From contig CM000152.2 in NCBI GenBank assembly GCA_000004695.1, forward strand, positions 3,136,001-3,200,000: a stretch of 64,000 nt of DNA, in the 5' to 3' direction. The position numbers and the translations under genes were made by a program. Origin of the DNA: Dictyostelium discoideum. Taxonomy: Eukaryota. The notes beneath the pieces were generated by a model that saw nothing but the letters and a program-made list of their open reading frames with translations, was not told the DNA's origin and did not search any database. The stretch's first letter is position 1. Every line of letters starts with the position of its first letter. Positions 57,710-63,504 of the stretch are shown here, in pieces.

Positions 57710-58119
57710 CATAAAGAATTTTTTATATTAATAATTGTATTGGTTAATAATTTTTAAAATAGATAACAGATTAATTTCTTTTTATTCATTTTTTTTTAAT
57801 AAATAAAAAGTAACATAACATGTTTGTGGTTTATTTTCAAGAATATGGTTCCAAACATTTTTTTTTTTTTTTTTTTAAAAAGGATATAATATTATTATTA
57901 ATCATTTGATTTCTATAATTATAAGAAATGAATACTTTGTATCATAATAATATTTTTTTAAAAAAAAAATGAATAATTAAAAAATAAAAAAAAGGTATTT
58001 AAATGAGGTTTTAATTTTTTTTTTTTTTAATTATAATTCTCATATAATTTTATTAATATTTGTTTTTATAGTTTTTTTTTTAAAACCTTTTTATTAAAAT
58101 TTTAAAAACAGACAAAAAA

Positions 58120-58593
58120 ATGAGATCAATCCTTATTTTATTAAGTTTATTATTAACTATTGCATTTGCATCAGCAAGTTTCCCATACCAATGTGGTCCA
58201 TATAGTTGTCAATTTGGTCAAGTTTGTAGAATTGATAATGGTGTTTCTAATTGTATTCCAATTAATGATTGCCATGAAGTTTCATTATCAACAAAAGTAG
58301 TTGGTACTTGGGTAGATGGTTCGCGTGGTAATAAAAGATTCACTCAATATGATATTACAATCACAAATAATTTAAATACAAATATTAAACAAATTTACAT
58401 TGCCACTGATTACACTTTAAGATTAAGAGATCATTCAAATAACTCAATTTGGAATGTTAACCTTTTACCAAATGGTATCCTCACTCTTCCATCATACCAA
58501 CCATCAATCAATGCTCATGCTTCCTTTACTTTTGGACTCATTATTGAAGGTACTCAACCTGCAAATTTAAATGTTTTATCAGTTTCTTTCTAA
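58120..58593 (+). CDS. Secreted Cys-rich CBM49-like protein, tandem copy 1 (157 aa).
   Basis: Same family as 22659..23132. It carries a unique Cys-to-Ser change (GVSNCIP), and the variants NNS and GLIIEG are shared with copy 3. Confidence 0.7.
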   Translation: MRSILILLSLLLTIAFASASFPYQCGPYSCQFGQVCRIDNGVSNCIPINDCHEVSLSTKVVGTWVDGSRGNKRFTQYDITITNNLNTNIKQIYIATDYTLRLRDHSNNSIWNVNLLPNGILTLPSYQPSINAHASFTFGLIIEGTQPANLNVLSVSF

Positions 58594-59243
58594 ACCATAT
58601 ATCCATTTTAAATTAATCAAAAAAATACCATAATAAATAATTTATTATTTATTTTATTTATTTTATTTTATTCTTATTTTATTTAATTTTATTTTGTTTT
58701 ATTTTTATTTTTTTTTTTTTTTATTTTATTTTATTTTATTTTATTTTTTTTTTACAATAATGATACTAATATTAAAAATTAATAAAAAAAATCTTAAATT
58801 ATCTTGTGTCATATGAATGATATCATTGGTGCAAGGCAAAAGTGAAGTAACTTTTCAAAAGTTGACGAAGGGTGATTTTTTTATTTGGAGGATTTTTTCT
58901 AAAAAAAAAAAAAAAAATAAAAGAATAAAATAAAAAAAATAAAAAAAAAAATATTTTTAGAATTTTTTAAAAAAAAAGTCAACCTGGGATCAAGATATTT
59001 TTAATTCAAATAATTGAAATGATAAAAATTCTGGTAGGCAAAAGCAATCACAAATATCTAAAAATTATTTTTAAAAAAAAAAATAAAAAAAAAAAAAATG
59101 GTTTTTTTTTTTAATATTTAAACCCATTATTTTTATTTTTTAATTTTTATTACATCATCATTCATTTCAAATAAAATAATTTTTTTTAACATTACCTCTT
59201 TTCAGTATTATTCAAATATCCTTTAAATCAACCAAATAACAAA

Positions 59244-59330
59244 ATGAAATTAAACTTTATTGGAGGCCAAAATCGTCAAGGACCAACTACCTCAAGTAAC
59301 AAACCAAGTGGAAGATCAGGTAAGATATCT
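59244..59330 (+). other. Conserved short exon-like ORF (M..GQNRQGPTTSSNKPSGRS) ending at a GTAAGA donor. A second copy lies at 61151..61232. A diverged version lies at 63016..63132 (MFPNSNGPNKMKALVAPSNSSTTSKTNNNNLPPNGRSS|GTGAGT).
   Basis: Each has an ATG, a short hydrophilic peptide ending NGRS(S/G) and a canonical 5' splice site. The peptide-GT junction is retained even in the diverged third version. No downstream coding exon was identified. Confidence 0.25.
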
Positions 59331-60111
59331 CAACTCTCTCTATCTCTCTCTCTCTCTCTAAAACAATTAATAAATAATAAACCATTACTGACATTTATAA
59401 AAATTAAAAAAAAAAAAAACAAATAAAAAAAAAAATTAAAAAAGTTTTCTTTGCATAAATAGTATAAAACCCTTACGCGCGATTATTTTTAATTATTAAA
59501 TTAATAATAAAAAGTTAAATGAACATTTTAGAATATATTAAACCCTAATTTGTTATTCATTCAATATTTTTCAATAATCATTAATTATTTAAATAATTAA
59601 GTTTTTATTATTAGTTTAATAATTTCCAAATATTTTTTATATTTCAAAAAATAAAAAAAATAAAAAAAAAAAAATAAAAAAAAATAAATTAATTAAATCG
59701 AAAAACATATAATGTTTTTTTTTTTTTTTTTGCTGGAAAAATAAAAAAAATTAAAATTTGTTTTGGGTGGGATCTATTTTTTTTTTTTAAATAACAATTA
59801 TTTGATACTAGCTTTTATTATTCAAAAAAAAAAAAAAAATGTAAGGAGGTAATACATCTTGAGATTGTACCATCTATTATTTAAAAAAAAGAAATTTTAT
59901 ATTATTAATTACTTGATTTCTAAATTAATAATAAATGAATATTTGGTGTCATAGGTATTGAAGGAAAATATTAAAAAAAAAATAATAATAAAAAAAAAGG
60001 TATTTAAAGGTTTAAATAATTATTAATTCTAAATAATTAAACATTCAAATATTAATTTTTATTAAAGCTATAAAAACAAGGTATTAAAAAAAAAAAAGAA
60101 ATCTTATTAAA

Positions 60112-60585: not shown

Positions 60586-62022
60586 ACACCTATCATTTTA
60601 AGTTAATCAAAAAAACACCATAATAAATAATTTATTATTTATTTTATTTTATTTTTTTTAATTTTATTTAGTTTTATTTTATTTTATTTTAAAACGTTGT
60701 AATAATTTAAAAAACATTATTTAAATCGTTATTTTTTTTCTATTTTTTTTTTTTGAAATGTATTAATATTTAAAATTAATAAAAAAAATCTCAATTTATC
60801 TTGTGTCATATGAATGATATCATTGGCACAAGGGAAAAGTAAAGTAACTTTTAAAAATATCAGGTGATTTTTATTTATTTTTTTATTTGGATTTTTGACA
60901 ACCTGGGATCAAGATATTTTTAATTCAAATAATTGAAATGATAATTTGGGTTGGTAAAAGCAATCACAAATATCTAAAAATTATCTAAAAAAATAAAAAA
61001 AATAAAATTTTTTTTTTTTTTTTAATATTTAAACCCCATTATTTTTTTTTAGTTTTTATTACATCATCATTCATTTCAATAAAATAATTATTTTTAACAT
61101 TACCTCTTTTTTTAATATTCAATAATCCTTTAAATCTGCCAATTAACAAAATGAGAACAAGCTGGACAGGTGGCCAAAATCGTCAAGGACCAACTACCTC
61201 AAGTAACAAACCAAGCGGAAGATCAAGTAAGATATTATATTACCCCTCCAACAAATTATTAATTAAACAATCATTACTAACATTTTTAAAAATAAAAAAT
61301 TAAAATAAAATAAAATAAAAAAGTTTTCTTTGCATAAATAGTATAAAACCCTTAAGCGCAATTATTTTTAATTACTAAATTAATAATAAAAAGTTAAATG
61401 AACATTTTAGAATATATTAAACTCTAATTTGTTATTCATTCAATATTTTTTAATAATCATTAATTAATTTTTAATGAGTATTTTAATAATTTAAAATGTT
61501 TTTTATATTTCAAAAATATAATAAAAAAATAAAAATAATAAAATAATAAAATCTAAATACATTTGTAATGTTTTTTTTATTATTTCTGGAAAAAATAAAA
61601 AATGAATAAAATAAATAAAATTTGTTTTGGGTGGGTTCTATTTTTTTTAAAACACCAATTATTTTGATATTAGCTTTAACATCTATTATATTAATTTTTT
61701 AAAATATTCTGGAAAAAAATGTAAAGAGGTAATAGATCTTAAGATAGTACCATCTATTATTTAATAAATGGTAAAATGGAAACTTTTTATTATTAATTAC
61801 TTGATTTCTAAATTAATAATAAATGAATATTTGGTGTCACGGGTGTTAAAGAAAATATTAAAAAAAAAAAACAAAAAAAAAAAAAAAATAATTTAAAAAA
61901 AAAAAAAAGGTATTTAAAGTTTTTAAATTATTAATTCTAAATAATTAAATATCAATAAAAATATTTATTAAAGCTATAAAAACAGGTATTAAAAAAAAAA
62001 TTTTATTTAAATAATTATTAAA

Positions 62023-62496
62023 ATGAGATCAATTCTTATTTTATTAAGTTTATTATTATCAATTGCATTTGCATCAGCAAGTTTCCCATACCAATGTGGT
62101 CCACATAGTTGTCAATTTGGTCAAGTTTGTAGAATTGATAATGGTGTTTGTAATTGTATTCCAATTAATGATTGCCATGAGGTTTCATTATCAACAAAAG
62201 TAGTTGGTACTTGGGTAGATGGTTCGCGTGGTAATAAAAGATTCACTCAATATGATATTACAATCACAAATAATTTAAATACAAATATTAAACAAATTTA
62301 CATTGCCACTGATTACACTTTAAGATTAAGAGATCATTCAAATAACTCAATTTGGAATGTTAACCTTTTACCAAATGGTATCCTCACTCTTCCATCATAC
62401 CAACCATCAATCAATGCTCATGCTTCCTTTACTTTTGGACTCATTATTGAAGGTACTCAACCTGCAAATTTAAATGTTTTATCAGTTTCTTTCTAA
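62023..62496 (+). CDS. Secreted Cys-rich CBM49-like protein, tandem copy 3 (157 aa).
   Basis: Same family. It has unique LLSIAF and CGPHSC changes and otherwise resembles copy 1. Confidence 0.7.
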   Translation: MRSILILLSLLLSIAFASASFPYQCGPHSCQFGQVCRIDNGVCNCIPINDCHEVSLSTKVVGTWVDGSRGNKRFTQYDITITNNLNTNIKQIYIATDYTLRLRDHSNNSIWNVNLLPNGILTLPSYQPSINAHASFTFGLIIEGTQPANLNVLSVSF

Positions 62497-62891
62497 ACCA
62501 TCAAAACAAAAAAAAAAAAAATACCATAATAAATAATTTATTATTTATTTCATTTCATTTTATTTTATTTTTAATTTATTTTTTATTTCATTTCATTTTA
62601 TTTTATTTTATTTTAATATATTTTATTTTATTTTATTTTATTATATATTATTTTTTTTTGAATTTGTTTTTAGAAATGTTTATTTAAATTTATAAATTTT
62701 TTTTTAAGGGAAAAAAAAAATAAAAAGATATTTTAAATCTATGAAAACAAAAAAAAATCAGGCATATCAGTTTTTGATTGCGCAATATTTTCAAAAAAAA
62801 AAAAAATTAATAGAAATTATTTGGAAAAAAGTGGTTTTATTTTTCTTTTTTTTCCACAAATCCAAAAATATCTGGGTCGATCATATTTATA

Positions 62892-62923
<32 letters not shown>

Positions 62924-63504
62924 AATAATTTTATTTTTTTTTTTGGGTTTTAAATTTTTTTTTTTTATTTTATTTTTTTTCTTTTTTATACTTTTCAAAA
63001 ATTAGTTAATATAAAATGTTCCCAAATAGTAACGGCCCAAACAAGATGAAAGCACTTGTTGCCCCATCGAATTCATCTACCACATCCAAAACAAATAACA
63101 ACAATTTACCCCCAAATGGAAGATCAAGTGAGTTTTTTTTTTTTTTTTTTCCTCCAAACACACAAACACTAATTGTATAAAATTAATAAAAACTAATATT
63201 AATCATAAAATTTTTTTTATTTTTTTATTTTATTTTCTTCAGTTTTTGGTCCATAAAACAGTATAGTGAAACCGGATTACCTATTTACATTTAATAAATA
63301 AAGATGTAAATCAAAATGTAAAATTAAATTTATATATTTTTTTTATTTTTATTTTTATTTTTTATTTTTTTTTTATTTTTATTTTTTAAAATAGAAAAAG
63401 AAAAATTCTGTTTTTGGATGAAATACAACTTAAAGGTATATCATGACAATGATGGGAATTTTGTTGAAACTTAATTCTTCAACTGTTGACGGTATTGAAT
63501 TTTT

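Follow-up and report, generated by a model that had tools for sequence, protein, structure and literature searches.

Probable concerted evolution and copy-number change in the stalk gene family staB, staA, somC and ecmL of Dictyostelium discoideum

The window analysed here, a stretch of 64,000 nucleotides (nt) of chromosome 3 of Dictyostelium discoideum AX4 (assembly GCA_000004695.1, contig CM000152.2, positions 3,136,001 to 3,200,000; 21% G+C over the window), carries four intact open reading frames (ORFs) of 157 codons in the ORF listing, three of them in tandem on the plus strand and one at a distance on the minus strand. By sequence look-up, all four proteins are exact full-length matches to AX4 records (P08797, Q54VL1, Q54VK7 and Q54VM7), two of which are curated as Stalk-specific protein A (staA) and Stalk-specific protein B (staB), and the ORFs show no sequence difference from the database entries of staA, staB, somC and ecmL. 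The cassette is the known sta family, with staB, staA and somC in tandem and ecmL inverted 35 kb off; very probably, gene conversion keeps its members alike in an array that gains or loses copies. The genes are already known, and their homogenization is ordinary concerted evolution of a small tandem family. They had been picked out before by a model that saw only the sequence and its ORFs (the original prediction). It placed four paralogs, tandem and inverted dispersed, exactly where these ORFs are found, rightly spoke of a soil amoeba, the organism being a dictyostelid, and called their function undescribed. This last statement is refuted, as the genes have been named, with published stalk and somatic-cell expression and a reported cellulose-binding annotation. 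The four genes are as follows.

58120-58593, plus strand: staB (copy 1), DDB_G0294499, Q54VL1, EAL67363/XP_641344; putative signal peptide, 5-Cys stretch (C43S) and CBM49
60112-60585, plus strand: staA (copy 2), DDB_G0294473, P08797, EAL67364, annotated 'DIF-inducible'; putative signal peptide, 6-Cys stretch and CBM49
62023-62496, plus strand: somC (copy 3), DDB_G0280277, Q54VK7, EAL67365; putative signal peptide, 6-Cys stretch and CBM49
22659-23132, minus strand: ecmL (distant copy), DDB_G0280245, Q54VM7, EAL67349; putative signal peptide, 6-Cys stretch and CBM49

Because the AX4 window alone cannot show conversion, orthologous loci were fetched from five other genomes, namely two isolates labelled D. 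discoideum (GCA_054859355.1 and GCA_054859385.1), D. citrinum, D. dimigraforme and D. cf. discoideum (GCA_054859205.1). The resulting 22 coding sequences (CDSs), four from AX4 and 18 from the other genomes, include 15 from the D. discoideum complex and four from D. citrinum, and were compared by a neighbor-joining tree and a distance matrix, by the four-gamete test with the minimum number of recombination events (Rmin), by permutation of the pairwise homoplasy index (PHI), by the ratio of nonsynonymous to synonymous divergence (dN/dS) and by outgroup polarity. In AX4, the two isolates and D. citrinum, the dispersed copy is inverted, lies about 30-35 kb from the array and stands between a THH1/GPR137-like gene and a TPR gene, and the flanks of this locus are collinear with those of AX4 at 87-90% identity in the isolates and 76-84% in D. 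citrinum. Since these flanks are collinear with the same neighbors, the dispersal is older than the split between D. discoideum and D. citrinum. All 22 CDSs cluster by species in the tree. The dispersed copy of D. citrinum is 10 nt away from its own array copies a1/a2 and 29 nt from AX4 ecmL, and eight sites are fixed between the 15 copies of the D. discoideum complex and the four of D. citrinum whatever their locus, with not a single site specific to the dispersed locus. Polarity by outgroups adds shared derived states to this: T82 is a derived state confined to AX4, where it is found in staB, staA and ecmL, while among the states derived in D. citrinum only, those at 96, 339 and 366 are in all four copies and those at 337, 402 and 426 are common to the array and the dispersed copy. 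Synonymous divergence (dS) is 0.03-0.19 within species (array against dispersed copies, 0.08-0.14 in D. citrinum and 0.14-0.19 in AX4), and that between orthologous dispersed copies is 0.21, above the within-species values. Selection at the protein level cannot cause the clustering by species, because synonymous divergence shows the same pattern. Such clustering of paralogs at orthologous loci points to concerted evolution. In the D. discoideum complex, moreover, 248 of the 465 pairs of informative sites are incompatible by the four-gamete test (Rmin of 18).

How far does the homogenized tract extend? Identity of 90-100% inside the CDS gives way at its edges to 70% or less, or to about 83% when tandem units are compared pairwise by BLAST, so that tandem units with CDSs 97-99% identical are only about 83% identical in their non-coding parts, and homology of the dispersed copy ends about 6-30 nt from the CDS, a promoter box excepted. 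As identity drops at its boundaries, the tract is essentially the coding sequence. Gene conversion confined essentially to this 474-bp CDS would thus homogenize the copies in each lineage, the inverted dispersed copy included, and purifying selection (dN/dS of about 0.1) keeps the protein constant. Conversion between the inverted copies would proceed without crossover; orientation and spacing of the array and the dispersed copy are alike in the four genomes examined (AX4, the two isolates and D. citrinum). One site escapes homogenization: codon 108 (for example 60433-60435; CDS nt 323-324) is either AAC (Asn) or ACT (Thr), and AX4 and D. citrinum agree in how the two states are distributed, the array copies reading N, T, N and the dispersed copy T; in all four genomes examined the dispersed copy is of the Thr type. 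Clustering by species, a homogenized tract as wide as the CDS and variable copy number all match what is generally known of concerted evolution in small tandem families, whereas participation of an inverted copy 35 kb away and the escape of codon 108 differ from it.

The array itself changes in copy number among the relatives. At the syntenic site, which is always preceded by a Peptidase_C39_2 gene, there are three copies in AX4, four in each of the two isolates, three in D. citrinum, three in D. dimigraforme and one in D. cf. discoideum. Positions 54008-58703 of the window are collinear with 2156-6751 of the locus of one isolate, which hold copy 1 and the upstream flank, and positions 58089-64000 with 7906-14046, which hold copies 2-4 and the downstream flank; the two alignments overlap only at 58089-58703, that is, at the staB CDS and about 30-110 nt on each side of it. 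Thus staB of AX4 joins copies 1 and 2 of a four-copy arrangement, its 5' flank being that of copy 1 and its 3' flank that of copy 2; within the gene, AAC at codon 108 and T411/A417/C418 show the 3' half to agree with copy 2 of the isolates, not copy 1. This collinearity argues that the array has been remodelled by recombination between direct repeats, be it with loss of a unit in AX4 or with gain of one in the isolates, and non-allelic homologous recombination between the direct repeats of about 1.9 kb would be the way in which copy number changes. The original prediction had proposed unequal crossing-over, and the one to four copies among relatives, together with the hybrid flanks of staB, bear this out, all of the support coming from the other genomes.

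Then, what do the four AX4 sequences tell by themselves? Their CDSs are 94.7-98.7% identical in pairwise comparison and vary at 30 of 474 nt and at nine amino-acid positions (codons 13, 28, 32, 43, 61, 108, 140, 142 and 151), not at the 'about 6' positions counted before. The sharing of residues described earlier is seen as such, with NNS and GLIIEG in copies 1 and 3 and NTS and GFILEG in copy 2 and the distant copy. The change of Y to H ascribed to copy 3 alone is right in that only this copy has H28 and wrong in its polarity: since all 18 copies from the other genomes carry C at nt 82, and H (or Q) at residue 28, it is Y28 of staB, staA and ecmL that is derived. Among the variable sites, 22 of 30 are singletons (13 in ecmL, four in somC, three in staA and two in staB); all eight informative sites support the one bipartition of staB and somC from staA and ecmL, and none of the 28 site pairs is incompatible. 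A single tree rooted on ecmL, without homoplasy, explains the four sequences, and for this reason the 'mosaic' of differences, which had been taken as a sign of conversion, is not itself evidence for it; what supports gene conversion, that of the dispersed copy included, is the comparison with other genomes.

The following points weigh against the interpretation by conversion and copy-number change. AX4 alone gives no recombination signal (Rmin of 0 in the four-gamete test on its four copies), and PHI permutation is not significant in any set (p = 0.07-0.89), so that conversion and recurrent mutation are not separated by spatial pattern. A certain amount of homoplasy is to be expected, given only about 104 synonymous sites and the AT bias of the genome. 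The difference between three and four copies fits either deletion in AX4 or duplication in the isolates, and the one-copy state of D. cf. discoideum could be a rearrangement, a collapse of the array or a misassembly. Moreover, the isolates are only about 86-90% identical to AX4 (over 18.6-27.1 kb and 54-64 kb of the window, genes included), and these two 'D. discoideum' isolates look like a divergent lineage, not close population samples. Because of the PHI result, the claim of conversion is built not on tract statistics but on two observations, clustering by species although the loci are syntenic, and derived states that the copies share.

It might be supposed instead that no conversion is involved, and that a birth-and-death process, with recent independent duplication in each species followed by purifying selection, has made the copies alike. 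Such a process would be in line with the one to four copies among relatives, with dN/dS of about 0.1, with the fit of the AX4 sequences to a single tree and with the PHI result. However, the dispersed copy occupies the same site in the same orientation, about 35 kb from the array and with collinear flanks, in AX4, the two isolates and D. citrinum, and thus predates the split, and yet its species-specific substitutions, silent ones among them, are those of the array in the same genome; besides, recent duplication of whole units would not give tandem-unit flanks that are about 17% diverged beside CDSs that are 1-5% diverged. Birth-and-death alone is therefore an unlikely account. Still less can be said for the idea that a repeat was mis-assembled or over-expanded into three tandem copies in the reference, which we regard as practically negligible. 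An independent chromosome-scale assembly (GCA_054883475.1, contig of 6.43 Mb), which served as a check on the array, carries the three copies as well and aligns to 50120-64000 of the window at 99.6%, with 11 gap openings and four mismatches, so that the array, for which an assembly artefact had been named beforehand as the thing to check, is reproduced with just these four mismatches over 13.9 kb. In addition, the array copies differ at 6-15 CDS sites and their spacers by about 17%, staA (CAA30707) and staB (CAA73552) have separate older records, and related genomes have three to four copies at the syntenic site. We thus retain the interpretation that conversion keeps the CDSs alike in an array of changing copy number.

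Repeat units were mapped by BLAST self-comparison of the window, since Tandem Repeats Finder, whose longest period of 500 is exceeded by the unit of about 1.9 kb, gave no repeat. A repeat finder puts the starts of the tandem copies 1992 and 1911 nt apart, and three inverted-repeat pairs with arms of 482-510 nt, 93-97% complementary, tie the array copies to the distant copy. By BLAST, 57869-58886 matches 59877-60880 at 83.7%, 58980-60783 matches 60899-62696 at 82.8% and 61787-62659 matches 57892-58752 at 85%. The units are delimited as follows.

57869-59876, plus strand: tandem unit 1, promoter box, staB and spacer 1 (BLAST self-comparison)
59877-61786, plus strand: tandem unit 2, promoter box, staA and spacer 2 (BLAST self-comparison)
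61787-62722, plus strand: tandem unit 3, truncated, promoter box, somC and about 200 bp (BLAST self-comparison and isolate collinearity)

A unit of 1.9 kb, non-coding blocks included, was said to be duplicated in all three; the length of about 1.9-2.0 kb with non-coding sequence is right, but the third unit is truncated, stopping about 200 bp past the stop codon, and beyond this point only a diverged copy of the spacer island described below is kept. The array of AX4 is complete at three copies, and in GCA_054883475.1 the next gene is LBP_BPI_CETP-like. A fourth copy beyond the window end was considered and ruled out, as AX4 62497-64000 aligns downstream of the last copy of the isolates and the LBP_BPI_CETP gene comes next. 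There is also a G+C-richer block containing ...TTATCTTGTGTCATATGAATGATATCATTGGTGCAAGGCAAAAGTGAAGTAAC... at 58790-58860 and 60790-60860, about 200-270 nt past the stop codon, which follows staB and staA only and is absent after somC and ecmL. Among the other genomes, D. citrinum (locus 9076-10474) and D. dimigraforme (locus 7380-8775) have their first two copies about 920 bp apart, start to start, with a spacer of about 450 bp; this short first spacer is without an island and the second copy is without an upstream box. In D. cf. discoideum (locus 10001-13500), homology to AX4 gives way about 1.1 kb downstream to unrelated ORFs, one of them with a GHSMGG esterase-like motif; an annotated 135-amino-acid model there fuses the ATG exon of a spacer island to an unrelated ORF.

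Two non-coding elements accompany the genes. One is a 22-nt box, ATTATTAATYAYTTGATTYCYA, which occurs exactly four times in the 64-kb window with at most one mismatch, against 0 expected, each time 188-234 nt before an ATG, and which, in the five other genomes, precedes nearly every copy by 146-251 nt. Being conserved upstream of nearly all copies, dispersed ones included, it is likely to be a cis-regulatory element. The other is an island of higher G+C in the spacers (59175-59400, 61050-61275 and 63000-63150), each with an ATG and an ORF of 76-79 nt (M..GGQNRQGP.TS..GRS) that ends at a donor-like site, GT[AG][AT]G. Both elements are located in the window as follows.

57894-57915, plus strand: 22-nt upstream box of staB, -226 from the ATG
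59901-59922, plus strand: 22-nt upstream box of staA, -211 from the ATG
61789-61810, plus strand: 22-nt upstream box of somC, -234 from the ATG
23299-23320, minus strand: 22-nt upstream box of ecmL, -188 from the ATG
59244-59320, plus strand: spacer-1 island, 76-nt short ORF and GTAAGA donor-like site, within hypothetical ORF DDB_G0280387 (59244-59426)
61151-61227, plus strand: spacer-2 island, 76-nt short ORF and GTAAGA, within hypothetical ORF DDB_G0280389 (61151-61303)
63016-63128, plus strand: third spacer island, diverged, with a short ORF up to a GTGAGT donor-like site

A 23-nt core of the island is invariant in seven copies from three species, an indel in the islands preserves the frame, and between AX4 and the isolates the island is 97% identical against about 86% for the spacer overall. 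In AX4 the islands are annotated solely as the unspliced hypothetical ORFs DDB_G0280387 and DDB_G0280389, and a protein search with the 60-amino-acid island ORF matched only these two, with no relatives elsewhere; Pfam gave no match on the short island ORFs. Tested as RNA genes, the islands gave no tRNA and an RNAalifold energy of -3.1 kcal/mol with no covarying pair, and Rfam over 57000-64000 gave no match except two sub-threshold miRNA-like hits at 63518-63609. Splicing of the island exon onto the downstream sta ORF was considered and ruled out, because a stop interrupts the frame and no island precedes the first unit. The island could be a co-duplicated micro-gene, for a peptide of about 29 amino acids or a spliced short transcript, or a stalk-specific enhancer, kept as the spacer decays. 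That the tandem unit consists of a sta gene and a second functional element, this island, and that, separately, the codon-108 dimorphism is held against conversion by selection for two isoforms, is a tentative proposal, and one that we ourselves consider rather doubtful.

The family assignment of the proteins made in the original prediction was confirmed by the profile search it had called for: in all four copies, Pfam CBM49 (PF09478) scores 53.4-56.3 bits against a gathering cut-off of 23.4 bits (E = 3e-14 to 4e-15, with 3.2e-14 for staB and 4e-15 for staA), over profile positions 2-79/80. Each gene would give a pre-protein of about 17 kDa whose signal peptide (MRSILILLSLLLTIAFASA|S) probably directs secretion; this agrees with the small secreted architecture proposed earlier, as the N-terminus, by inspection, looks like a signal peptide, with R2, a hydrophobic core ILILLSLLLTIAF and ASA before S21, S18 and A19 being invariant across homologs. 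Next come six Cys (25, 30, 36, 43, 45 and 51), mostly conserved in homologs. C43, itself conserved in most homologs, is replaced by Ser in staB only, and the loss of one cysteine by copy 1 alone had been noticed correctly. The '6-Cys knot-like motif' is thus real as six Cys in three copies and five in copy 1, but the knot is unsupported, the TILa profile scoring 15.1 bits on this stretch, under its cut-off of 27 bits. A sequence profile search of PDB gave no significant relative, its sole match having E = 0.26, and for this reason a fold comparison was used. An AlphaFold2 model of staA built on an alignment of 13 sequences (pLDDT 87.5) has an isolated helix at residues 2-19 and is all-beta from residue 54, where it is predicted to form a CBM2-like beta-sandwich, that is, a fold of carbohydrate-binding type. 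Conservation read across 13 homologs shows W64, Y77, W111 and F138 to be invariant and Y126 nearly so, and the protein may attach to stalk cellulose via these conserved aromatic residues. Homologs in D. purpureum and Polysphondylium violaceum, the closest full-length ones at 64-66% identity, have the signal, the Cys stretch and CBM49, and one in Heterostelium album (47%) has a signal peptide and CBM49 without the Cys stretch.

CBM49 modules are shared with plant class C GH9 endoglucanases (GH9C), Acanthamoeba Luke lectins and the Dictyostelium proteins St15, CelB and EcmC/D; what the Sta proteins have in common with this family is the HMM match and the predicted beta-sandwich. They differ in standing alone: of about 135 amino acids when mature, they consist of a short N-terminal stretch rich in Cys and one CBM49, without the catalytic domain of GH9C and, unlike the Luke lectins, with only the one CBM49. 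Likeness of the model to CBM2 (C. cellulovorans EngD, 3ndy_E, and C. fimi Cex, 1exg), at 13-18% sequence identity, is resemblance of fold, not family membership. The gene st15 is a different one, DDB_G0292218, elsewhere in the genome.

For late stalk and somatic expression, DIF inducibility and cellulose binding we depend entirely on the literature. The name somC for DDB_G0280277 was given in PMC9117722, where promoter-lacZ showed expression in multiple somatic cell types with staining of stalk, disc and cups, and the name ecmL for DDB_G0280245 comes from the supplementary tables of PMC12821622. As a passage of Kin et al. (2018, PMC6198379), citing Jermyn et al. (1987), puts it, staA is a late stalk gene and an earlier-identified marker of terminal stalk differentiation; it has been traced to a 1987 paper on prestalk-enriched mRNAs. 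In the tables of PMC12821622, a 2026 proteome study, StaA and EcmL proteins were detected in the fruiting body only and StaB protein at culmination and in the fruiting body; the annotations given are prestalk/basal disc for staB and 'Cellulose binding' for staA. According to the same study, CBM49 binds crystalline cellulose, and staB is included there in a listing of those CBM49 proteins that were 'directly shown to bind cellulose'. It took CAA73552 as the staB identifier. This older, cDNA-derived record (CAA73552.1, 'STAB protein', 165 amino acids) contains insertions and frameshift-like stretches relative to StaB as encoded in the genome, and has Ser at residue 43 too. Assignment of peptides to single copies may be unreliable, because the paralogs are nearly identical. 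Literature searches on ecmL, staB/basal disc, St15, pDd26, the DDB_G identifiers and Dictyostelium gene conversion gave nothing specific to the array.

These reports fit the extracellular-matrix role that was among the earlier suggestions, the genes being late stalk and somatic-cell matrix genes. Could the primary role of the family instead be in the spore coat, in interaction with prey or in defence? Dictyostelium spore-coat and sheath proteins also carry CBM49, and possible spore-wall roles have been noted for the CBM49 class as a whole (PMC12821622). Against this, the staA transcript is late and stalk-specific, staB is annotated to prestalk and basal disc, somC promoter-lacZ stains stalk, disc and cups, and the proteins detected are confined to culmination and the fruiting body. 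Such a primary role is therefore very unlikely, and the spore-coat and prey suggestions find no support in the literature on stalk and somatic expression of these genes. The presence of several near-identical copies probably serves dosage, allowing the proteins to be made in a burst as cells differentiate terminally.

Other features of the window may be listed briefly. At 63500-63627 there is an AT-rich palindrome of about 128 nt, 86% self-complementary; its Rfam miRNA-family hits score 23-24 bits against gathering thresholds of 53 and 139 and are probably due to chance. A tRNA-Ser(AGA) gene at 7611-7692 on the plus strand is unrelated to the array, and so are tracts with 9/12-nt periodicity at 2422-2635, 9166-9474, 19533-19824, 23658-24009 and 31630-32301, which are low-complexity sequence typical of this genome.

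What is added here is comparative evidence of copy-number change and concerted evolution for genes already known; full-text searches found no published account of it. Its significance goes little beyond bookkeeping, as a small documented case, in a social amoeba, of concerted evolution in an array and an inverted copy 35 kb away. Those who use staA, staB and somC as separate cell-type markers, or in mapping of RNA-seq reads or peptides, should nevertheless know of it, because the paralogs differ at merely 6-25 of 474 nt. The 22-nt promoter box and the spacer island, for their part, could guide dissection of the promoters that drive stalk-specific expression.

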